The notes beneath the pieces are model-generated. The model did not search any database. It was not told where the DNA came from and worked only from the letters and a program-made list of their open reading frames with translations. A DNA stretch of 64,000 bases from a virus. Of the stretch, positions 21,087 through 62,506 are shown piece after piece; the first letter of the stretch is position 1, and each line of letters starts with the position of its first letter. The translations under genes were made by a program, and so were the position numbers. Location: positions 55,944 through 119,943 of the IMG/VR virus record IMGVR_UViG_3300045988_054096; one strand, 5' to 3'.

Positions 21087-21410
21087 TTACCATTCAGGAT
21101 TATAATTGATATAGAACTCCTTATCTATAACATAATCAATAAAGATCTTAGGGCACTGTTTAACGGATCTTAGTAATTCGTTAGAGTCTGGATCATAGAA
21201 GTCCATGACAGGCTTTCCATTCTCATAACGTATTACAACTTTCCTAACAGAGTCAGGAGTTTTTTCTGACGTAAAGGTAATAGTGGCACTATCTCTGCTA
21301 ATCCATTCAGACAGAGCTTCGTCCAACTCGAAAGTGGACTTGTACCCTTTGGCTCCAAGAGATATATACCAACGACCCTTTACAACCTTTAGGTAAATTT
21401 TATGGTTCAT
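21087..21410 (-). CDS. hypothetical protein
   Basis: 107 aa ORF. Confidence 0.3.
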   Translation of the reverse strand: MNHKIYLKVVKGRWYISLGAKGYKSTFELDEALSEWISRDSATITFTSEKTPDSVRKVVIRYENGKPVMDFYDPDSNELLRSVKQCPKIFIDYVIDKEFYINYNPEW

Positions 21411-21649
21411 TTCTCTAACTTCTTACATATAAAGTCAGCAATACTTCCGATTGGTTCTTTCAATATAGAAAGTTCCTCGTCAGTAACTTCAACATCATAC
21501 GTCCTTTCTACATACCCCATAAGGTCTATAGCATCAAGACTGTCTAACCCAGCATCATTAGCTAGACTAGACTTTTCGTCTAGCTCTACTGGATACCCAA
21601 GATCGGAAGTAATGAAGTTGATTATACTAGCTATAACTTCTTCTCTCAT
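21407..21649 (-). CDS. acpP: acyl carrier protein
   Basis: 80 aa; phosphopantetheine attachment motif LGLDSLDAIDL. Confidence 0.75.
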   Translation of the reverse strand: MREEVIASIINFITSDLGYPVELDEKSSLANDAGLDSLDAIDLMGYVERTYDVEVTDEELSILKEPIGSIADFICKKLEK

Positions 21650-22812
21650 GATTCTACACTAATTAACAGAGAGCTATTAGTTCCTCCTAGCCCAAATGAA
21701 TTGCTTAGTATCATTTTAGGTTTGGTTTCTACTAACTCTTTTCTAATATTCAATCCCATTGAAAAGTCAGCAGTATTTATGTTTGGAGGAATAAATCCCT
21801 CTCTAGCTGCAAGAAGAGAATATATCACCTCACTTGCGCCAGCCATCCACATCTCATGCCCAGTTAGTGCTTTAGTAGCACTAATATAGGGAGAGTTTCC
21901 AAACACTACTTTTATTGCATCAGCTTCTATTTTATCCCCTTCCCTAGTACCAGTAGCATGAGCACTTATAAGAGAAACATCTTCCGGATATACATCTCCC
22001 AAAGCTTTCTTCATACAAGATATTTGAGATTCAGTAGTACTAACCACTAACTCTCCAGAGGATGTAGCACCATACCCAATTATTTCTCCGTATATTTTAG
22101 CTCCTCTAGAGAGCGCATAGTCGAGATCTTCTAGAACTAGACAAGCAGCTCCCCCACTAGGAACTAATCCACTTCTCATCTCATCAAAAGGTCTCACTGC
22201 TTCCTCCGGATTTGGACTAACAGAGAAGTTTCCAAGAGCATCAAACGCAAATACTGAATATTCATTGACCTCTTGACATCCTCCACATAGTATTGCTGGT
22301 TCAATTCCTTGCTTTATAAGAGCATATGCAACTCCTATAGCATGACCTCCAGAGGCACAAGCTCCTCCAACAGAGAATGACGTTCCTCTCAACTTAAAAA
22401 GGTTGGTAATAACTGCTGTAGGATTGGAATTTAGAGTCTTAATGACATGAGTTGGTCCAAGTTTTGATGTTTTGGTGTGCTTTCTCCACATATCAATGGA
22501 TTCAGCCATAGCTCTAGAACTACTATCATTTCCAATAATAACACCACAATCTGTAAGACCATCTGAATCAGTAAGTGCTTCTGATGCTGCCACGTAAGCA
22601 TATTTACTTTCATCTGACATGAATCTTTGAAGTGGTCTCGGAATGAAAGGCTCCTGTAACTTACCAGTGAGAGTAGATCGAAATCCTATATCAGTCCTAG
22701 GTGTATCAGCGACAAGTCCACACTTTCCACTACGAAGTGATTTCAGAACTTCCTCCTTACCAACACCAAGACAGGAATATATTCCTATCCCAGTAATGAC
22801 AACTCTCTTCAT
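21646..22812 (-). CDS. fabF: beta-ketoacyl-ACP synthase (KAS I/II, FabF/FabB-like)
   Basis: 388 aa; active-site GGACASG Cys, HATGT His, C-terminal NSFGLGGTNSSLLI; start overlaps ACP stop. Confidence 0.8.
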   Translation of the reverse strand: MKRVVITGIGIYSCLGVGKEEVLKSLRSGKCGLVADTPRTDIGFRSTLTGKLQEPFIPRPLQRFMSDESKYAYVAASEALTDSDGLTDCGVIIGNDSSSRAMAESIDMWRKHTKTSKLGPTHVIKTLNSNPTAVITNLFKLRGTSFSVGGACASGGHAIGVAYALIKQGIEPAILCGGCQEVNEYSVFAFDALGNFSVSPNPEEAVRPFDEMRSGLVPSGGAACLVLEDLDYALSRGAKIYGEIIGYGATSSGELVVSTTESQISCMKKALGDVYPEDVSLISAHATGTREGDKIEADAIKVVFGNSPYISATKALTGHEMWMAGASEVIYSLLAAREGFIPPNINTADFSMGLNIRKELVETKPKMILSNSFGLGGTNSSLLISVES

Positions 22813-31039: not shown

Positions 31040-32956
31040 TTACTTCACTTCTTCAAACGTTTCAGGCTTCTCCTCTGACTCTGGCTTTGTCTCGATAGCC
31101 TTCTTGCCAAACATATCCTTGAAGGTCTCCTTCAAAGGAATGCTACGGAGCAGATCCAATGCAGGATTCAAGTTCTCGGCAGTCTTAGCCATGAAGTTAC
31201 CTGCGGTATTCTCGTTACCATACACAGTAACCTCACCAAGATGAACGTGTTCAAACATCTGAGCAGATGCTTCGGCAATACCCTTAAGCTGATCAACAGT
31301 CTTATACTGTACAATCATCTGCGGAGTCATACCACACTCAATCATCTTCTCAACTGCCTTAGCAGGAGCTAACTCAATTGCAGTAATCTTATCAGCTTCA
31401 GCCATAAGAGATGCTCTCTTACCTTCTGCCTCAGCTAACAGTTTCTTCTTGGTACCTTCAGCCTCTGCCTCCATGATTTGCTGAGTAGCTTGAGCTTTCG
31501 CTTCGGCTTCCTTAGTAATCTTAGCTGCTTCCGCTTCTGCTTCCAAGATGGCCTTCTGCTTGATTGCCTCTGCCTCAATTGTAACTTGTTCCTTCTTCTT
31601 CTGAGCAGGAACAATTACTTCGGCGTGCAATTTTGCTTCAGTTGCCTTAGCTGCAACCTCATTAACTTCAACTTGCTTTTCCTCACGAGTCTTAGCAACT
31701 TCCATTTCTGCATTGACCTTAGATACACCTGCTACACGCTGTGCTTCTGCCTCAGCCTTAGCAGCTTCTCCCTTAGCCTTAGATACTTCAATGGTTGCTG
31801 TCTGTTCAGCTACGCCAGCTTGCTTGTCAGCCTCAGCCGCACGCTGTCTCTTCAGAGATTCATACTCTGCAACCTTAGCTTCCTGCTCATTGATAGCCTT
31901 CTGAGTTTCTGCTTCCTGCTCTTGCTCGGCTTTAGCCATACGAATTTGCTTCTGAGCCTCTGCCTCTGCTTGAGCTGAAGCTGCTTCTGCTTCAGATTTA
32001 GCTACAGATGCTACTGCTTCTGCCTTACGAGCTGCTGTAGCTGCTTCTGCTTCAGCCTGTGCCTTAGCTACATTAGCTGCCTTCTCAGCCTGCTGATTTG
32101 CTACACCAGATTCCTTAACCTTGTCAGCTTCTGCCAACTTGATTTCCTTCTCCTGGTTAATTTCAGCTACACGTACCTCTTGCTGTTGCTTAGTTTCAGC
32201 TACCTGAGTGGCTCTTTCCTTCTCTGCATTTGCTACAGCAATTTGACGCTCCTTCTCAGTATCTGCGATCTGGATGTCTCCTTTCTTCTTCTCTTCAGCA
32301 ATGTCAGCAAGTGCCTGAGCTTCTGCCTTAGTAGCAGCTTTCTTACCAAGATTTCTGATGTAGTTTGCATCATCAGTAATATCAGCATTGTTGATATTGA
32401 TGATACTGAAACCAACCTTGTTCAACTCAGTTTCAATATTCTCTTTAGCTTTGCCCAAGAACTTAACACGGTCAGCATTGATTTCTTCAATAGTCATTGT
32501 AGCCATCAGACTTCTTACCTCACCAATAAGAATATCCTTGATTTGGTCAGAAATTTCTTGTGGACTTGACGTTAAGAATCTACTTGCTGCATTCTGCATA
32601 AGAGTGTCAGTAGTTCCAATACCAGTCGTTAAAGTCACAGGAATAGTAACCTTAATCATCTGACTAGAAACTCCTGCTACAGATGCCTGAATTTGAATAG
32701 GTTTAAGAGACATCTTCCTCCAATCCTGGATCACAGGGAATACAAATGTACCTCCACCATGAATAATCTTGGAAGGAAGAATCACAGTTTCACTCTTCCC
32801 AGTAGTGGGATTGGTTACTGACTTCTTGCCAGCTTTACCAAACACTACTAAGATTTCATCACTTGCGCAACGACGATAGCGCGACATCAGACTAATAAGG
32901 GTCAAGATCACGAGAACTACTATAATTCCCGCGATAATTAAACTTGAAGTAAGCAT
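31040..32956 (-). CDS. flotillin-like protein (SPFH/band-7 domain with long Ala/Glu/Lys-rich coiled coil)
   Basis: 638 aa; N-terminal TM, SPFH domain, extended AEAEA/KAEAEA coiled-coil repeats (source of spurious plus-strand shadow ORFs). Confidence 0.55.
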   Translation of the reverse strand: MLTSSLIIAGIIVVLVILTLISLMSRYRRCASDEILVVFGKAGKKSVTNPTTGKSETVILPSKIIHGGGTFVFPVIQDWRKMSLKPIQIQASVAGVSSQMIKVTIPVTLTTGIGTTDTLMQNAASRFLTSSPQEISDQIKDILIGEVRSLMATMTIEEINADRVKFLGKAKENIETELNKVGFSIININNADITDDANYIRNLGKKAATKAEAQALADIAEEKKKGDIQIADTEKERQIAVANAEKERATQVAETKQQQEVRVAEINQEKEIKLAEADKVKESGVANQQAEKAANVAKAQAEAEAATAARKAEAVASVAKSEAEAASAQAEAEAQKQIRMAKAEQEQEAETQKAINEQEAKVAEYESLKRQRAAEADKQAGVAEQTATIEVSKAKGEAAKAEAEAQRVAGVSKVNAEMEVAKTREEKQVEVNEVAAKATEAKLHAEVIVPAQKKKEQVTIEAEAIKQKAILEAEAEAAKITKEAEAKAQATQQIMEAEAEGTKKKLLAEAEGKRASLMAEADKITAIELAPAKAVEKMIECGMTPQMIVQYKTVDQLKGIAEASAQMFEHVHLGEVTVYGNENTAGNFMAKTAENLNPALDLLRSIPLKETFKDMFGKKAIETKPESEEKPETFEEVK

Positions 32957-32972
32957 TAATTAAAAAATTATT

Positions 32973-33470
32973 TTAAGAAATGTAATAAATTCCATCCTTG
33001 TAAGAGGTTATTTTTAGGATTTCTCCAGGCTGTACCTCTCTATCAGCCTTACAGATTATTTCTATATAATCAGGGTTGCAAATAACACAGCTACATAGTC
33101 CATTCTCAAGAGGACAATAAATAGTTACTGACCTCCCCACTAACTCATCGCCTTCTTTCCTAGTAGGTTCTGAATTAAACTTCATACATAGTTTATAGAC
33201 TAGATATAGAATAAACATAAGAGCAATACCAGCAACACAGGCTATAGCAATCGTAATTGCAGTGACTTTACCTATAACCATGAGCCACCCAGAAAATCCC
33301 ATAGCAAAGTGAATCAGTCCCTTAAATGACAGAAGATCACTAACACTGAAATCAACGTTTCCATCAAAGTCCACGTCAAGGTCAGTATCAGAGATTCCAA
33401 GATTAGATAAGATAAACTGAACGATAAATATGCCATAGGATATTATACCCAAGATGTAATACCATTCCAT
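32973..33470 (-). CDS. NfeD-like membrane protein (partner of flotillin)
   Basis: 165 aa; multiple TM helices then C-terminal beta-rich domain; immediately upstream of flotillin as in yqiJ-yqiK pairs. Confidence 0.35.
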   Translation of the reverse strand: MEWYYILGIISYGIFIVQFILSNLGISDTDLDVDFDGNVDFSVSDLLSFKGLIHFAMGFSGWLMVIGKVTAITIAIACVAGIALMFILYLVYKLCMKFNSEPTRKEGDELVGRSVTIYCPLENGLCSCVICNPDYIEIICKADREVQPGEILKITSYKDGIYYIS

Positions 33471-33473
33471 AGA

Positions 33474-33818
33474 TCAAAAGGTTAAATTATTAGGAAACAA
33501 CTCATTCTCGAAATCGACATCATTCCCTATATAATCGCCATTAGCAGACTGATTAGCAACAAGAGCTCTCAGTCTTACTGTACCCATGAATACAGACTTG
33601 GCAATAGGTTCTGGATAAACCCTTTTAAGAAGAGTCTGGATATTTATACGGCTATCTATATAATTACTGAAATCTTCTGCATACATTAAAATAGCATTGA
33701 AGATATATAGCCACAATTCAATCTTCTTAAAATTATAGGTAGGACGAAGCAGTCTAAATTCAATAGTCTTGTTTACTTTGTAACAGATAAGGTTGATGAA
33801 GTTTACCCAATAATACAA
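33474..33818 (-). CDS. hypothetical protein (TTG start in track; true start uncertain)
   Basis: 114 aa ORF. Confidence 0.25.
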   Translation of the reverse strand: MYYWVNFINLICYKVNKTIEFRLLRPTYNFKKIELWLYIFNAILMYAEDFSNYIDSRINIQTLLKRVYPEPIAKSVFMGTVRLRALVANQSANGDYIGNDVDFENELFPNNLTF

Positions 33819-33984: not shown

Positions 33985-34461
33985 TTAGGATTGCCTTGTA
34001 AAATCAGCAACTTTGCAACATAAATTTTTGAAATCAGAGTCGGATAATCCATTTTTCATGATATTAATGGGTTTGTATACCCACTGTACATTTCCAATTT
34101 CATATCCTTTGTCAGAATCAATTCTATCAACTGAAGCATTGGATTCCCCTTTCGGAGTATCTACTACTTGTAGGTCTATACCTGTATAAGCACATTTGAA
34201 GTTTTGCTTCTGCAATACTTTATATAGATCTTCCAAGGTCACACTACAATCAATAATTTTACCTCCACGAATAAGATTATCTTTTATAGAGGATAACCAT
34301 ACAACATGCATTCCGTTTTCATCAAAATAGCCTCTGGACTTTCGCTTATCTGGATAATTATTTTTCCTTCCACACTTTCTACAACATTTAAATTGCATTT
34401 TCTCTAGTTCTGAAAGGCGTTTATAATCAATATTTCCACATCTGCATTGAAATTTTACCAT
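33985..34461 (-). CDS. HNH endonuclease
   Basis: 158 aa; N-terminal Cys cluster, C-terminal ASVDRIDSDKGYEIGNVQWV HNH motif. Confidence 0.5.
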   Translation of the reverse strand: MVKFQCRCGNIDYKRLSELEKMQFKCCRKCGRKNNYPDKRKSRGYFDENGMHVVWLSSIKDNLIRGGKIIDCSVTLEDLYKVLQKQNFKCAYTGIDLQVVDTPKGESNASVDRIDSDKGYEIGNVQWVYKPINIMKNGLSDSDFKNLCCKVADFTRQS

Positions 34462-34652: not shown

Positions 34653-35549
34653 TTACTTTCGACGTGTAGGTATTCTCCATTTAGCTCTCCTCTCAACGTC
34701 ATTAGGATGAGTGAGATCGCCAAGGAAGGGTCTTCCCACAAGATCCTTGTACATCTGACCAAAGTCACGATATGGTCTCAACTTTGAGCAATAATCCTTT
34801 CCATTAGCTTTGTATTCAGAACTTCTAAAGGTTAATGGTGGGACTAGTTGAGAAATGTCCTTTTCCAATAACCTGCAAAGCGCTTGAGCTCTGATAATTG
34901 CATTGGGATCCAATGGAAACCCTCCAAGGTGGATATGTAGAGAACACTCCTTGTTAAAAGCAGTATACTCTTTTAAACTCTTCAATTCTTGTTTTAGAAG
35001 AGACAATCCATCATTACCATTAAGGACAACCGTAGAGTACTCTAATCCGGAGATTGATCCATCTCGCAAAGGAATTAGTCCGTCCCTGAAACAAATATCC
35101 TCTGGTATGTATCCCATAGAAGTTTCAAATTCTAACCCAAATGTATACTTCAGGTACTTAGACAGAGTGTATTCAGTATCCTTATCAAGCACCCTCTGTT
35201 TTCCATCGAAAAGGCAAAAGCTTTCAACAGCTTCATATCTTTTATCAAAGGAATACGGAAACCCTCCTTGTCCTTTTACATTTGTCTCATAAACAAGAGC
35301 TTCTTCTGGAAAATCAATAGTAGATATGTATATGCCTTTACTCTGACTATACACTAAGTGATCTTTCAAGAGCTCTTTATCTCCCCTAAAGACTTCCGTT
35401 CCACTAGAAGTTTCAATCATAACATCTACCACAGTCTCTCGTCTACTAGAATAACCCAATACGACCAGCCCGGGAAGATGTTTCACTACAACACGTTCAC
35501 ATTCTGAAAGTGGTAGAAATTGTTTAGTTATTTCATCAAAGACTTGCAT
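34653..35549 (-). CDS. amidoligase (glutamine-synthetase-like COOH-NH2 ligase, Pfam Amidoligase_2-like)
   Basis: 298 aa; FGLEFE...RDGSISGLEY...CSLHIHLGG signature. Confidence 0.55.
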   Translation of the reverse strand: MQVFDEITKQFLPLSECERVVVKHLPGLVVLGYSSRRETVVDVMIETSSGTEVFRGDKELLKDHLVYSQSKGIYISTIDFPEEALVYETNVKGQGGFPYSFDKRYEAVESFCLFDGKQRVLDKDTEYTLSKYLKYTFGLEFETSMGYIPEDICFRDGLIPLRDGSISGLEYSTVVLNGNDGLSLLKQELKSLKEYTAFNKECSLHIHLGGFPLDPNAIIRAQALCRLLEKDISQLVPPLTFRSSEYKANGKDYCSKLRPYRDFGQMYKDLVGRPFLGDLTHPNDVERRAKWRIPTRRK

Positions 35550-36871
35550 TCTTCTCGTATGGTTTTGAAATTAAGTTCTAGTTTGTCCTGAAACTTAGAC
35601 TCCAATGGTTCAGTATCTCTACGATAACTTGTTGATTGTCTCATTCCAGAACAAAATTGAGTGGTAGTTACAGATGTTAGCTGTTGAAGTGTACCTGTAA
35701 ATAGAATAGATCCAGTAGGAGAAATGGTCTTATACCATAGATCTCCTCGACAGAAAACTCCATCAACACTAAGGTACCTAATCACATTCTCAAATTTCCT
35801 GCTAAACTTGCTTTCAGACAATCTAGTTTCTTTCCTAAGTCTCGTTAAGAACTTAAAGCAGTTACTATTCTTCATAGCAACTCCATTAAAGAACCAGATG
35901 TCTATTCCTCTTTTTTGTTTAGATTCAACACGACCAAATCTATTGACACACAGCTTGCCATGGATACGTTTCCCTTTATAGGAATAGGTATTATCTAACA
36001 AATTGCAGCTAAGATAATTGTCATAAACAAAAGTGTCATCAGAATAATCATAGTCATCCCACTTTCCGAGATAGTCCCTGCTGTATGGAAAGGCATTGTA
36101 TGTTGGAACTACTGCTACTTCTTTAGTTTGGATACATTTCTCTCTACTATACTCCTTAATAGTTACTAGAGCAGATCCACTAAACTCTAGAAGCTCATTG
36201 CTCCGAACTGAATACGTTGTACAATCTTTCCTCAATGCAAGCAGATAGATTCCAATAGAAGAGAATACTAACTCCCTTTTGGCTTTGTCTATGCAGAAAT
36301 ACAATGGACGCTCTACCTCCGCTTCCTTGGAATAGGTATGCTTTTTAGAAGCTCCCTTAAACAGAAGTACTCTTGGAGAAATTCCTCGATAATCAACAAT
36401 AGCGAACGCTGACCCTCCATTATATTCATCGAGTACATCATAACCAGCGTAATAAAAGATTCTAGCCATGACCTGAGAATCAGTTAATCCAGTAATGTCA
36501 ATATCAGGAATATACTTCTCAGCAAGTTCCTTGTAGTTGTAGATAGTTCCATTGTGGATTACTACAAACTTTACAACCCCACCTTCGGTTAAGACAACTG
36601 GTTGAGCTGTCTCCTTAGATATTACCCCAACAGAGGCTTTTCTACAGTGCAAGAGAGCTATTCTAGCTGTCTTAACATTGTTCAAAAAGTCACTATCCGG
36701 AAAATAGTTAGCGAACAATTTAGTCTTGTCAACACCATAATCACATTTACCGTCTATAAAGACACCACAAGAGTCTCCACCTCGGGCATCATTAGCAATG
36801 CCCAAGGTACAAAACGTAGAATAATCAAACTCCCTCGGAGTTTGATTAATAATTCCAGCAATTCCACACAT
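35528..36871 (-). CDS. class II (Ntn) glutamine amidotransferase
   Basis: 447 aa beginning MCGIAGI (N-terminal nucleophile Cys2); overlaps neighbours. Confidence 0.65.
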   Translation of the reverse strand: MCGIAGIINQTPREFDYSTFCTLGIANDARGGDSCGVFIDGKCDYGVDKTKLFANYFPDSDFLNNVKTARIALLHCRKASVGVISKETAQPVVLTEGGVVKFVVIHNGTIYNYKELAEKYIPDIDITGLTDSQVMARIFYYAGYDVLDEYNGGSAFAIVDYRGISPRVLLFKGASKKHTYSKEAEVERPLYFCIDKAKRELVFSSIGIYLLALRKDCTTYSVRSNELLEFSGSALVTIKEYSREKCIQTKEVAVVPTYNAFPYSRDYLGKWDDYDYSDDTFVYDNYLSCNLLDNTYSYKGKRIHGKLCVNRFGRVESKQKRGIDIWFFNGVAMKNSNCFKFLTRLRKETRLSESKFSRKFENVIRYLSVDGVFCRGDLWYKTISPTGSILFTGTLQQLTSVTTTQFCSGMRQSTSYRRDTEPLESKFQDKLELNFKTIREECKSLMK

Positions 36872-36874
36872 AGG

Positions 36875-37660
36875 TTATATGATGTTATACTCAGAGATAA
36901 CTCTCTTAGCAAGTTCTAAATCACTATTGTTTATTACACTACAAGCAATCGCAGGACTTATGAGAGTACTTCCTTTAGAGCAGTGGTATATTGCTTTTGA
37001 AAGCTGGTCCCATACAAAGTTCAAAGTTTCTACATCCTTCATCATAGCACCGCTCAATACCCTATACTCTACACCATATGGAGTGAGTCTAAAACATCCT
37101 GCCTTACCATACAAAGAACGTCTTCTCTTATCCCTATCCCTCACAACAGATGGAATGCCAAGATACATATCTAAGTACTTAACCAATGCTACAGATGTGT
37201 CAATGTTGTTATTAGCATACCCAATGTGGAAGCCACAGCTCCTGAGGTTAGTTTTGTTTCCTTCTGGTTTAGGATTAGCCTCTTCTGTATAAGCATTGTA
37301 GTCTACATCACATCCAAAGAGTTTAGCCTGAGGACTTCTCAATTGACTAGCGTCTACCGTTTTCGATGCTGCACAGAGTATTCCGAGATCGGGATTAATG
37401 TTCTTAACAAATTTATCAATATATGCCTTCATATACTCAATGTTGTTTATGAAGGATATCCTATCATTAACAGGAGGTATATTAAACTCCGCTACGATGT
37501 TGTCGGTTTCCAACCCAAATCCACTCGGCATATCTGCTGCTACATAAGGATTTCCCTTCTCTCCAGGGATCAATCCAATAGAAGACACAACCTTCTTTGT
37601 TTTCTCATTTATGATAAACAATTCAGGATCTGCTCCTATAGTTATATTATTTATTCTCAT
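36875..37660 (-). CDS. second amidoligase-like / COOH-NH2 ligase-like protein
   Basis: 261 aa; GADPELF...SCGFHIGY...GVEYRVL resemble ligase motifs; weak. Confidence 0.3.
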   Translation of the reverse strand: MRINNITIGADPELFIINEKTKKVVSSIGLIPGEKGNPYVAADMPSGFGLETDNIVAEFNIPPVNDRISFINNIEYMKAYIDKFVKNINPDLGILCAASKTVDASQLRSPQAKLFGCDVDYNAYTEEANPKPEGNKTNLRSCGFHIGYANNNIDTSVALVKYLDMYLGIPSVVRDRDKRRRSLYGKAGCFRLTPYGVEYRVLSGAMMKDVETLNFVWDQLSKAIYHCSKGSTLISPAIACSVINNSDLELAKRVISEYNII

Positions 37661-38367
37661 CTACTAAACGTTTTACAAGATCACTAATCATTTTTGCGAC
37701 AGGAGAGTCCGGTATCATCTCTGGATGTCCTTGTACTGCAAGGCACTTAGGGAAACCCTCTTTGTGATATAGAACAATTTCAGGTTCTCCGTTCTTTATA
37801 ATGGTATCCTGGTCTATTTTTTCTCCTACATACTCATGAGATCTTCTCTGTTGTAAACAACACATCATAATCTACCCTATTCAGATTATAGGGATACTGC
37901 ATTTGATGATGTGTTGATGTAATCTGATATAGTGTATCGCCATCACTAATCTCGTGCGTATATCCTATGGCATGATTCCAACAATGCTGCACAAGAATAC
38001 CACCGTTCATAACACACAAGAATTGAGAACCTCGGCATATTCCCAAACACAATTGTGTAGGTTTGACTGACTCGAAGATTTTCTTTTCAGCAAGGTCACG
38101 CTTCTTATTACTGTGAGTATATCGATCCCTCTCACATCCATACTCTTAGGCATGAATGGAAGATTCGAAGTGTAAATTACAAATTTTACCATTCTTAGGA
38201 GTATAGTTGCTATCCATTGGTTCTGTTAAATAGAACAGATCGACTTCTTTCCAAGTAGCCATCACTAGCTTTTCACCAGGAGGTAATTCTATAGTTAGAG
38301 TACCTCCAAACTGTCTTGCTCTCTGATTTTCAGTACATGAAAAAAAGCGTTGGAAGCAATCCCGCAA
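37647..38367 (-). pseudogene. class I glutamine amidotransferase-like / peptidase C26 (gamma-glutamyl hydrolase-like), disrupted by in-frame TAA (38148-38150) and a frameshift near 37860
   Basis: fragments in track (73, 72, 73 aa) join as ...ESSIHA*EYGCERDRYTHSNKKRDLAEKKIFESVKPTQLCLGICRGSQFLCVMNGGILVQH...HHQ... then shifted ...GEPEIVLYHKEGFPKCLAVQGHPE; conserved GICRG(S/M)Q Cys and HPE His present. Confidence 0.45.
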
Positions 38368-38404
38368 CCAACGCTACAATTAACAATCTTTTCCTCATAA
38401 ATAT

Positions 38405-40646: not shown

Positions 40647-40665
40647 CATAACATACAAGTTAAAG

Positions 40666-41152
40666 TGGAGATGGAGGGAATCGAACCCTCGTCCAAACAA
40701 TCCTTAATAATAAGATAACGTGTGTCTCTATTTTATTTATCAGCTGTTGAGGTTCAGCTTATTTAGTTATATGACACTAACAAACTAGGGCTGACCAGAA
40801 TGTCAACGCTCCACCACCTACTTTTTAACGCTAAAGCAGGAAAACGAGTGTTTGTGGTGAGTCAACCACGCAGGCACACATCCCTTCTGTTTAAAGACAA
40901 TAATAGGAGATTCAGCTCTACTAACCTGTGGCTTTCGAGTTAAGCACAGTGGCTTATATCCTTCTGCTGTACACCTCTTCCGTTTCTAGGTCTCTCCCTG
41001 TAACCCGACTCAACACATCAACAGCTGAGCCAGCTGCTTAGGCAGCCATTCTTACTTCATTGTAGTTTGCATTTATTGTTTTCCTTCGTTTAAAGAGATC
41101 GCGCTCTACACGTCTTATTACCTCGTAATCGTTGTCAATACCAAGCATCCCC
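40666..41152 (-). ncRNA. ssrA: tmRNA (ssrA), ~487 nt, tag peptide ANYNEVRMAA
   Basis: 5' GGGGATGCTTGGTATTGACAACG pairs with 3' CATCTCC-A; 3' end TTTGGACGAGGGTTCGATTCCCTCCATCTCCA closely matches tmRNA consensus GGACG.GGGTTC.A.TCCC.CCA.CTCCA; internal frame GCA AAC TAC AAT GAA GTA AGA ATG GCT GCC TAA (41070 to 41038) followed by hairpin GCAGCTGGCTCAGCTG. Confidence 0.6.
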
Positions 41153-41158
41153 AATAAT

Positions 41159-41277
41159 CAGAAATCTATTCAACTTGTCTTTTGCTCTGCCAACTGAGCT
41201 ACCTCCTGTTTATAATGTCTAGTCAGGAGGATGAGACTCGAACTCATGACTCAAAGATCCCTTCAATAGCTTTGCTG
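41159..41277 (-). ncRNA. Y-RNA-like (YrlA-like) RNA with permuted tRNA-like domain
   Basis: minus strand 5'-CAGCAAAGCTATT GAAGGGA TCTTT GAGTC ATGAG TTCGAGT CTCAT CCTCCTG A [CTAGACATTATAAA] CAGGAGG TA GCTC AGTTGGCA GAGC A AAAGA CAAGTTG AATAGATTTCTG-3': T-arm + 3' acceptor precede 5' acceptor + D-arm; AAAGA/TCTTT and CAGCAAAGCTATT/AATAGATTTCTG form a long terminal stem with 7x7 internal loop where an anticodon arm would be. Confidence 0.45.
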
Positions 41278-41298
41278 TTAGATTTCTTATTAGTGAAG

Positions 41299-41372
41299 TT
41301 GGGAGAACGGGATTCGAACCCGCAACCTCTACATCCCAAATGTAGTAGACTAGCCTATTGTCCTATCTCCCA
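41299..41372 (-). tRNA. tRNA-Pro (anticodon UGG)
   Basis: TGGGAGATAGGACAATAGGCTAGTCTACTACA TTTGGGA TGTAGAGGTTGCGGGTTCGAATCCCGTTCTCCCA. Confidence 0.6.
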
Positions 41373-43626: not shown

Positions 43627-43718
43627 AATTAAGTGAGGAAGAAAAGATTCGAACTTTCAAAACAATCATACCTAGAATTTGATCTGCTTTACCATTTTGC
43701 ATACTTCCTCATTAAGAG

Positions 43719-62400: not shown

Positions 62401-62470
62401 GTCCTCCCCCAAGGATTCGAACCCTGACCAAGTGGGTTAGAGCCACCTGTGCTACCATTACACCAGAGGA
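62401..62470 (-). tRNA. amber suppressor tRNA (anticodon CUA), Gln-like body
   Basis: TCCTCTGGTGTAATGGTAGCACAGGTGG CTCTAAC CCACTTGGTCAGGGTTCGAATCCTTGGGGGAGGA-C; perfect anticodon stem, loop C-U-CUA-A-C; D-arm GGTGTAATGGTAGCAC shared with tRNA-Gln(UUG) at 51134-51205. Confidence 0.65.
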
Positions 62471-62506
62471 GAATAAGGTTGCAGGAATTTCACCTGCAAA
62501 GTATTA

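Follow-up and report, generated by a model that had tools for sequence, protein, structure and literature searches.

Cassettes that combine two ATP-dependent amide-bond ligases with a glutamine-splitting enzyme are already described in phages. The phiEco32-type amidoligase cassette was reportedly set out by Iyer, Abhiman, Burroughs and Aravind in 2009 in Mol Biosyst 5:1636, which is also said to be the source of the families PF12224 and PF14395. The crAss-like phage cr108_1 and phages phi14:2 (Cellulophaga), EK010 (Escherichia) and TL (Pseudomonas) draw on the same families, a type-2 ligase, an Ntn class-II glutamine amidotransferase (GAT-II), an Amidoligase_2 enzyme and a GATase1/C26 protein, whose joint function is predicted; phi14:2 has the ligase, GAT-II and amidoligase core without GATase1. 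We found no experiments on any member of the cassette in the literature. A RimK-like ATP-grasp protein and a gamma-glutamyl cyclotransferase (GGCT) adjoin the cassette in cr108_1, phi14:2, Lbo-JY46, EK010 and TL.

We analyzed a related locus in the window, the whole 64,000-nt stretch of viral DNA studied here. Its source phage (~170 kb, from metagenome assemblies) has numerous tRNA genes and appears to use TAG as a sense codon; INPHARED held no near-identical phage, the sole match being a tRNA-Trp. The locus probably represents a phiEco32/crAss-type amidoligase cassette with three intact genes, among them an intron-split amidoligase, and a recently inactivated hydrolase; its chemistry would be glutamyl-type amide ligation (Table 1). 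Kinship to the proposed phage combinations of amidoligase, GAT-II and gamma-glutamyl hydrolase, suggested in a first-pass annotation, is supported by both HMMs and synteny. The genes of both ligase types and of GAT-II are adjacent and share one orientation, and the consecutive, overlapping minus-strand arrangement noted earlier is borne out. In cr108_1 and the related L007, L008, L009, L010 and L011, GATase1 is followed by the COOH-NH2 ligase, then GAT-II and then the amidoligase, and comparison with cr108_1, phi14:2, L007 and L008 agrees with a cassette. L008, a relative 97% identical to the window, is colinear with it over 38143–34662 (L008 2232–5730) and 33815–31000 (L008 5731–8531). The cluster spans about 38143–33474; the bounds first given, 34653–38367, have to be moved at both ends, as the amidoligase runs 1.2 kb beyond and homology to the hydrolase begins only at 38143.

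Table 1. Predicted features of the cassette region in the window.
Feature	Coordinates	Strand	Basis
Amidoligase_2 exon 2, 113 codons + stop, start YYWVNFINL...TIEFR	33474..33815	-	L008 colinearity
Group I intron, 846 nt, interrupting the amidoligase RY motif between its two invariant residues	33816..34661	-	Rfam, L008 comparison
HNH / endonuclease VII-type homing endonuclease ORF, 158 aa, intron-encoded	33985..34461	-	PHROG
Amidoligase_2 exon 1, 296 codons, end ...AKWRIPTR, last base U	34662..35549	-	L008 colinearity; alignment with intronless homologues
Stand-alone class-II (Ntn) glutamine amidotransferase, 447 aa	35528..36871	-	
COOH-NH2 ligase type 2, phiEco32-like, GCS/GS fold, 261 aa, intact	36875..37660	-	PF14395, PHROG 3815
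C26/GATase1 (gamma-glutamyl-hydrolase-type) pseudogene	37647..38143	-	alignments with L008, L007, cr108_1
Gene A remnant, first 16 codons (MVKFVIYTSNLPFMPK), fused to hydrolase codon 44	38144..38192	-	homologous N-termini
Small lipoprotein pseudogene, phrog_12728	38193..38398	-	alignment with L004, L005, L012

Pfam and PHROG profiles uphold the families assigned at first reading; NCBIfam matches were all sub-threshold and domain-level. The 261-aa protein described as ligase-like is a COOH-NH2 ligase by PF14395 (40.1 bits, E 3.3e-10, gathering cutoff 25) and by PHROG 3815 'COOH.NH2 ligase' (E 1.9e-61), which covers residues 2–260 of 261. It is 50% identical to cr108_1 gp032, and 313 deposited phage genomes encode the type-2 ligase, LUZ24-like and phiEco32-like groups included. 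The same ligase also occurs in crAss-like gut phages. A PDB sequence search with this protein and Amidoligase_2 returned no matches. The three intact genes, type-2 ligase, Ntn glutaminase and Amidoligase_2, are under purifying selection: against L008 they have dN/dS values of 0.10–0.40 (n=3), the ligase value of 0.40 resting on only 5 substitutions. These low ratios mostly reflect history preceding the deletion described below.

The MCGIAGI start had pointed to an Ntn glutamine amidotransferase, an assignment confirmed by the GATase_6/7 profiles (E 1.8e-14 and 2.2e-10). The N-terminal glutaminase domain (~1–250) is followed by a disordered linker (255–281) and a C-terminal beta-rich domain without known relative; no fused acceptor or synthase domain like those of PurF, GlmS, AsnB and GltS is present. 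The nucleophilic Cys just after the Met, the Ntn alpha-beta-beta-alpha fold and the Arg, Asn-Gly and Asp of the glutamine site place the enzyme in class II, and its active-site residues are conserved. It could, alternatively, be an EgtC-like gamma-glutamyl amidohydrolase or peptidase that removes a gamma-glutamyl group installed by a GCS-like ligase, a protect/deprotect scheme without an ammonia donor. We find this somewhat doubtful: the PurF/AsnB-type residues that bind free glutamine are conserved, although EgtC keeps them too, and among sequence HMMs the asparagine synthase and GlmS glutaminase domains come out on top.

The hydrolase, by comparison with the intact 209-aa L008 gene, has lost its start codon and first 43 codons at the nucleotide level, and in a protein alignment with L007 and cr108_1 (A2) the N-terminal part, including the GGEDVDP strand, is missing. 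A ~1.9-kb deletion relative to L008 removed these codons together with two upstream genes, A and B. N-termini like that of gene A occur in L007 (MNKILVYTSNLTSKPKS), L008 and L012; the gene-B family is shared with crAss-like phages, and neither blastp nor a small HMM found gene A or B homologues in EK010 and TL. The peptide MVKFVIY, tried as the hydrolase N-terminus, was discarded, as it belongs to the N-terminus of gene A. The frame of the hydrolase is further shifted by the loss of 5 nt, a single AACAG copy, within 37853–37848, leading to a premature TGA at 37836–37834; the frameshift suspected near 37860 is thus real and lies near 37850. The TAA, in contrast, had been misplaced: thought to interrupt the P-x-x-YGE motif of the hydrolase in frame at 38148–38150, it occupies 38148–38146 in the foreign sequence of the gene A remnant, in a different frame, 2 nt upstream of the deletion junction. 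ORF 38367–38146 likewise fails as the N-terminus of the hydrolase, being mostly lipoprotein pseudogene sequence. This chimeric ORF joins a lipoprotein gene, frameshifted and truncated at its 3' end, to the opening 49 nt of gene A read out of frame. The lipoprotein pseudogene has a T7 run at 38346–38340, against T6 in the intact copy of L012, and its last 29 codons are gone (115-nt deletion); once repaired, the 96-aa protein matches phrog_12728 along its entire length (E 3.7e-23).

The motifs GICRGSQ, HHQ and GHPE, on which a peptidase-C26/GATase1 homolog had been proposed, do persist in the fragments and with them the Cys-His-Glu triad, but no complete ORF remains. The first part of the hydrolase differs from L008 by 12 synonymous and 3 nonsynonymous substitutions, which indicates that inactivation was recent. 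The hydrolase lesions recur in L004, L005 and L006, and L007–L011 have intact copies. From its shared lesions, we read the hydrolase as a recent, 5'-deleted and frameshifted pseudogene. The contrary view, that all four genes work and that the TAA and frameshift are sequencing errors or are bypassed by readthrough or programmed frameshifting, draws on a conceptual translation that can be aligned to cr108_1 gp031 across the two lesions, on the surviving catalytic motifs and on the recoding of one stop codon, TAG, in this phage. We consider it extremely improbable, since it is contradicted by the L008 comparison: homology, as noted, starts after the lost codons, the TAA sits in another gene's sequence, the 5-nt direct-repeat loss involves no slippery site, and three further assemblies carry identical lesions. 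Recoding or readthrough of TAA was also rejected for itself, as the phage has no UUA-anticodon tRNA to read UAA, TAA as sense is needless anywhere in the cassette and this TAA is not hydrolase sequence.

The amidoligase had been recognized in part. Its family stands, but the 298-aa ORF 34653–35549 taken for the whole gene represents exon 1 only, and by itself scores 16.3 bits with PF12224, under the cutoff of 22. A provisional spliced protein with the junction 2 residues off reached 25.4 bits (profile 74–241 of 245), and the final 409-aa version matches PHROG 2443 'amidoligase enzyme' (E 1.9e-14). The provisional junction ...RIP|YYW was replaced by ...PTR|YYW once L007 and L008, both intronless, were aligned; the predicted ligated exons read ...CCUACACGU|UAUUAUUGG. 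Automatic gene calls divide the amidoligase into 298 aa and 114 aa. The spliced protein is colinear with intronless homologues, running through the junction against the 411-aa L008 amidoligase with a 2-residue length gap and 13 nonsynonymous differences. Its motifs G.EFE, RDGS..G.E, C.LH.H, RY and T.EFR are colinear with those of homologues (alignment A3), in which E137, F138, E139, T140, R159–S162, H202, H204, R295, Y296, E314, F315 and R316 are invariant in 4 sequences.

The intervening sequence, missed by the first-pass annotation, is predicted to be a mobile, self-splicing group I intron with an HNH endonuclease ORF. Exactly 846 nt are missing in L008, which joins 5730|5731 where the window has 34662|33815 and so has an uninterrupted amidoligase; L009, L012 and L007 are also intronless. 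L010 and L011 carry the same intron at the same site, beside intact hydrolase genes. The intron is 88–92% identical to that of L011, and the flanking genes 72–78%. RF00028 scores 31.9 bits (E 2.5e-5) on the intron and 32.4 bits (E 6.1e-7) on its 3' half, short of the gathering score of 50; Rfam gave nothing meaningful for the 5' 200 nt alone, and the 5' half (P2 to P5) yielded no convincing model. P1 would pair CACGU|CG with UGGCGUG, with a U.G pair at the 5' splice site, and P10 would pair UAUUAU with GUAAUG; the 3' end, ...CAUUUG, has the terminal G. AGACUA and GAUAUAGUC align to the P7/J8-7 core of RF00028, and an extra hairpin between P7 and P3' is of P7.1 type. The endonuclease ORF matches PHROG 1035 'endonuclease VII' (E 7.3e-17) and PHROG 3118 'HNH endonuclease' (E 2.3e-14), with no match in Pfam.

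An alternative is that the 846-nt insertion simply killed the amidoligase and that the entire cassette is decaying, its four genes non-functional or becoming so. Such decay would fit the loss of the linked genes A, B and hydrolase, the broken lipoprotein gene next to them, the Rfam score below the curated threshold, and the GAT-II of the cultured Pseudomonas phage TL, which is annotated only as fragments and indicates that cassette components can be lost. However, the insertion has group I hallmarks (U.G, P10, terminal G, P7/J8-7 core, P7.1-type hairpin), is base-precise and keeps the exons in frame; it recurs in L010 and L011 beside an intact hydrolase, and the exons have a dN/dS of 0.10 against L008. 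We therefore regard decay as very unlikely and retain the reading of a split amidoligase in a cassette of effectively three genes.

We infer that this cassette would serve glutamate/glutamine-centred amide ligation; the locus adds no new chemistry. Each GS/GCS-fold ligase would activate a carboxylate with ATP as an acyl-phosphate and join it to an amine, while the Ntn enzyme, lacking a fused synthase domain, would hydrolyze glutamine to feed ammonia to one ligase for amidation, or handle a gamma-glutamyl intermediate. Together they may build a small glutamyl- or glutaminyl-type amide-linked product or attach it to a target. The hydrolase would have been an accessory trimming or recycling step, lost in the lineage of the window phage through the one large deletion and the 5-nt repeat slippage.

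Rather than acting on peptide or cell wall, the cassette could target nucleic acid, decorating phage DNA or nucleotides with an amino-acid-derived group. The cassette lies within the replication module, beside UDG, in cr108_1 and phi14:2, and in viral metagenomes amidoligases and amidotransferases are encountered together with genes for thymidine hypermodification (PMC8989533). Yet a scan of 61 window ORFs detected no thymidylate-synthase-like, 5-HMUDK or aGPT-Pplase family, NfeD-like and SPFH membrane proteins come after the cassette in the window clade, and the published proposal for phiEco32, as quoted in PMC10580990, is cell-wall modification. A nucleic-acid target is thus unlikely.

The lineage with the triple loss is found in several assemblies, and its two ligases and Ntn glutaminase are intact: the hydrolase and two neighbours can go while these remain. 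We tentatively suggest, as one possibility, a natural triple knock-out of A, B and hydrolase in which the three core genes suffice by themselves as an amidating ligation module, the hydrolase and gene-B family being a dispensable eraser or regulator. If so, L008-like and window-like phages would offer a ready-made genetic contrast for finding the product of a widespread cassette, present in hundreds of phages, the window and L008 being a near-isogenic pair useful in that search. Loss of gene B and the hydrolase may have left the remaining genes unable to yield the ancestral product. The RY motif of the amidoligase would be a homing site for a mobile intron, and at such loci gene calls and first readings can take deletion junctions for in-frame stops.

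A functional parallel is the MurT/GatD pair, a glutamine-dependent amidating ligase that amidates iso-glutamate in peptidoglycan (PMC3267633). The logic is shared, an ATP-dependent ligase activating a carboxylate and a separate glutaminase subunit giving ammonia, but MurT has a Mur-ligase fold and GatD is a class-I GATase, whereas the window has GS/GCS-fold ligases and a class-II glutaminase; lacking sequence relationship to the cassette, the pair is an analogy only. Among phiEco32-type cassettes, cr108_1 gp031–gp034 has the gene order of the window, whereas the EK010/TL-type order (ligase, GATase1, amidoligase, GAT-II) differs. Unlike these cassettes, that of the window has a pseudogene for a hydrolase and an intron-split amidoligase. 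It also differs from cr108_1, phi14:2, EK010 and TL in its neighbours, with no RimK-like ATP-grasp/GGCT among the 61 window ORFs of >=70 aa (E <= 1e-4), or in the flanks of L007–L012; this companion is frequent though not universal.

Phage group I introns with HNH homing endonucleases include those of T4 nrdB (I-TevIII) and SPO1 DNA polymerase (I-HmuI); to our knowledge, an amidoligase has not been reported previously as an intron host. Such introns are reviewed in PMC3984707. Unlike the T4 and SPO1 introns, that of the window sits in an amidoligase gene and scores below the Rfam threshold, its splicing and endonuclease activity being predicted. By our own reading, its hairpin between P7 and P3' resembles the P7.1/P7.2 of subgroup IA. 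Like other phage HNH introns, it interrupts an enzyme gene between two highly conserved codons, carries a free-standing endonuclease ORF in a peripheral loop, and is patchy among close relatives, with an identity above that of its flanks.

The locus is a member of an already described amidoligase cassette, reportedly set out in 2009 by Iyer et al.; its Pfam families take their names from the cassette. What is new locally is a mobile group I intron within the RY motif of the amidoligase and the recent deletion of the hydrolase along with two upstream genes; the outcome is a natural three-gene version of the cassette, found in several assemblies. We hold this anatomy with high confidence. The first-pass annotation was right about the cassette type, as the HMM matches and the gene order in the crAss-like phage cr108_1 bear out, and about the protein families and a frameshift in the hydrolase; its TAA-interrupted hydrolase, its hydrolase ORF and its limits for the amidoligase did not survive.

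Coordinates of the cassette and of other features of the window
Feature	Position	Strand	Evidence or detail
Small lipoprotein gene, broken	38398-38193	-	full-length match of the repaired version to phrog_12728, E 3.7e-23
Gene A remnant, first 16 codons (49 nt)	38192-38144	-	MVKFVIYTSNLPFMPK; homologous starts in L008, L012
Peptidase_C26/GATase fragments	between 38052 and 37647	-	HMM match
COOH-NH2 ligase type 2, phiEco32-like, 261 aa	37660-36875	-	PF14395, 40.1 bits (cutoff 25)
GAT-II, 447 aa, N-terminus MCGIAGI	36871-35528	-	GATase_6/7, E 1.8e-14 and 2.2e-10
Intron-encoded endonuclease-motif ORF, endonuclease VII/HNH type, 158 aa	34461-33985	-	PHROG E 7.3e-17
114-aa ORF with YYWVNFINL...TIEFR	just downstream of 298-aa ORF	-	amidoligase-family C-terminal signature
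NfeD-like membrane protein (165 aa) and 638-aa SPFH/Band_7 flotillin-like protein	31040-33470	-	directly after cassette
Beta-ketoacyl synthase	21646-22812	-	Pfam E 2e-24 and 1e-22
tRNA-Ser(UGA), intron-split	39386-38683	-	5' exon 39386-39352, intron 39351-38739, 3' exon 38738-38683
PD-(D/E)XK endonuclease (PF11645), encoded in tRNA-Ser intron	39327-38884	-	two in-frame TAG within domain
tmRNA, phage-encoded	40663-41152	-	Rfam 97.2 bits
tRNA(CUA) amber-suppressor genes (n = 2)	43633-43710; 62401-62472		

All long ORFs at the cassette coordinates lie on the minus strand. HMM searches directly back three of the four proposed families, including the glutamine amidotransferase (GAT-II) and the ligase-like 261-aa protein, which also matches PHROG 3815 end to end (E 1.9e-61), but the 298-aa amidoligase ORF alone reaches only 16.3 bits against a Pfam cutoff of 22. 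The GAT-II active-site residues Cys2, Arg77, Asn107-Gly108 and Asp131 are kept across 42 homologues, and in its AlphaFold model (pLDDT 87) a disordered linker connects two domains. The ligase, GAT-II and spliced amidoligase are all full length; their dN/dS values against L008, a relative with 97% nucleotide identity, are 0.40 (from only 5 substitutions), 0.13 and 0.10, respectively, and stem mostly from the time before the deletion.

The amidoligase continues beyond the 298-aa ORF. When it is joined to the downstream piece, the Pfam match rises to 25.4 bits and covers profile positions 74-241 of 245, and tblastn yields an unbroken alignment across the junction with each of cr108_1 and Cellulophaga phage phi14:2. 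An alignment that includes three intronless homologues puts the junction between R and Y, both invariant, of ...KW(R/N)(I/V)PTR^YYW.NFINL. Comparison with L008 decisively sets the limits of the insertion: L008 is colinear with the window to 34662 and then from 33815, with no sequence between, which fixes the insertion at exactly 34661-33816 (846 nt). The intronless site in L008 reads ...ACACGT^TATTAT.... The splice sites look like those of a group I intron: the terminal U of the 5' exon is paired with G in a 7-bp P1 helix, the guide GUAAUG could form P10 with UAUUAU, the first six bases of exon 2, and the last intron base is G. The predicted ligated exon junction is ...CCUACACGU^UAUUAUUGG. The Rfam Intron_gpI match at 34125-33847 is sub-threshold (31.9 bits, E 2.5e-5); the 3' half of the intron alone scores 32.4 bits (E 6.1e-7) and aligns with P5'/P4', P6, P7, P8, J8/7 and P9. 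The predicted spliced protein of 409 aa is colinear through the junction with the 411-aa L008 protein, with a 2-residue length difference and 13 nonsynonymous differences.

The intron is mobile: L008, L009, L012 and L007 lack it (GAT-II identity to the window 98%, 86%, 67% and 45%), and L010 and L011 (77%) have it in the identical position; its identity between the window and L011 is 88-92%, whereas the flanking genes share only 72-78%.

Intact hydrolases of 206-210 aa lie upstream of the ligase in L007, L008, L009, L010 and L011, and a conceptual translation of the hydrolase in the window aligns with cr108_1 gp031 across both of its lesions. Homology to the L008 hydrolase starts only at 38143, 128 nt inside the gene, and is preceded by the first codons of gene A, which in relatives lies two genes upstream (N-terminal counterparts MSNKFLVYTSNLPFMPK in L008 and MVKFVIYTSNLPFMPKS in L012). 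Therefore, about 1.9 kb have been deleted, comprising the remainder of gene A (349 aa), the whole of gene B (255 aa) and the 5'-most 43 codons of the hydrolase. The TAA said to interrupt the hydrolase in frame is gene A sequence, out of frame and 2 nt before the deletion junction; it lies at 38148-38146, the annotated position being 2 nt off. The ORF at 38367-38146, taken as the hydrolase N-terminus, is a chimera that joins remnants of the lipoprotein gene and of gene A, both broken and unrelated to each other. The frameshift is genuine: one AACAG copy of AACAGAACAG is missing within 37853-37848, and this 5-nt loss creates a TGA at 37836-37834. Both the junction and the 5-nt deletion recur in three other assemblies with an identical GAT-II protein (L004, L005, L006), so the lesions are not one-off errors. 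In the first part of the remnant, differences from L008 are mostly synonymous (12 versus 3 nonsynonymous), indicating that inactivation was recent.

In the lipoprotein gene, a T7 run replaces the T6 of the intact L012 copy, and 115 nt present in L005, L006 and L012 are missing. The boundary of this gene with gene A (window 38193; L004:4539-4705; L005:1-121) varies among assemblies: L005, L006 and L012 hold the full 115 nt, and L004 carries 31 nt from the beginning of gene A a second time, giving 26-nt direct repeats. Judged by these repeats, the window boundary looks like a deletion between them; the variation may be true population variation or an assembly artefact. Gene A itself (L008:262-1311; L007:3784-4809) is conserved and about 345 aa long; throughout this phage clade its place is always two genes ahead of the hydrolase. 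A profile search found no family match for it; Met, Leu, Gly and Asn abound in its C-terminal region, as in ...LLPLLMMNQNGGALGMNPMMLMMLTDKGEG.... Two hypothetical proteins of cr108_1 show a weak relationship to gene B (blastp 1e-7; profile scores of 27.9 and 19.4 bits), and thus the deletion may have taken a conserved companion. In L012, a 67%-identity relative, an insertion of about 1 kb splits the hydrolase gene into 87 aa and 122 aa (L012:2545-4189); it contains a group I intron match (L012:2751-3013, 41.9 bits, E 1.3e-7) and an ORF of 248 aa that runs in the opposite direction. Different lineages have introns in different cassette genes.

A second group I intron, of 613 nt, lies after anticodon position 34 of tRNA-Ser(UGA) (Rfam 61.1 bits at 38945-38742, above threshold). 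ARAGORN misses the gene as it stands and finds a 91-nt tRNA-Ser(tga) after in-silico removal of the intron. The PF11645 match of its endonuclease covers both TAG codons, scoring 55.1 bits when read through versus 36.5 for the fragment; because of this and the two amber-suppressor tRNA genes, the sequence suggests that the phage reads TAG as sense, at least in some genes. No cassette gene requires this. The tmRNA gene measures about 490 nt, whereas the model has 374 positions; ARAGORN predicts an atypical tag peptide (VQQKDISHCA), and a second, overlapping match, to permuted tmRNA, lies at 41038-41358. An insertion within the gene is possible. The NfeD-like and SPFH pair is kept in L008, L009 and L012, and the SPFH/Band_7 protein has a long Ala/Glu/Lys-rich coiled region. 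The beta-ketoacyl synthase and an acyl-carrier-protein-like (PP-binding) ORF elsewhere in the window, perhaps the adjacent 21407-21649, are unusual auxiliary genes.

The chemistry of the cassette is a much more tentative matter. Its recurring partners, a RimK-like glutamate ligase, a gamma-glutamyl cyclotransferase (GGCT) and the C26 hydrolase, point to glutamate/glutamine-centred amide chemistry. In the mechanism that we favour, two ATP-dependent acyl-phosphate ligations would be combined with an Ntn enzyme that would give glutamine-derived ammonia or handle a gamma-glutamyl group; the hydrolase, in phages that have it, would trim the product. A literature search found no experimental study of cassette members, and a sequence search of the PDB no solved relative of either ligase. 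Cell-wall modification blocking superinfection has been proposed for the cassette (Iyer et al., 2009, as quoted in PMC10580990), and such genes have been possibly tied to DNA hypermodification clusters (PMC8989533); a scan of 61 window ORFs detected no hypermodification genes.

Deposited phage genomes with the type-2 ligase number 313. In cr108_1, gp031-034 comprise the four families in the same order as in the window, with a RimK-like ATP-grasp protein and the two hypothetical proteins upstream. Phage phi14:2 has GGCT, ATP-grasp, ligase, GAT-II and amidoligase, and the phiEco32-like Escherichia phage EK010 and the LUZ24-like Pseudomonas phage TL have ligase, a small protein, amidoligase, GAT-II and ATP-grasp. 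In the cultured phage TL (6505-7606), GAT-II is annotated as two misc_features only, labelled 'similar to N-terminal / C-terminal part' of a LUZ24 protein, and is apparently disrupted. Cassette components have thus been lost elsewhere too, as the fragments annotated for GAT-II in TL and the lack of GATase1 in phi14:2 illustrate.
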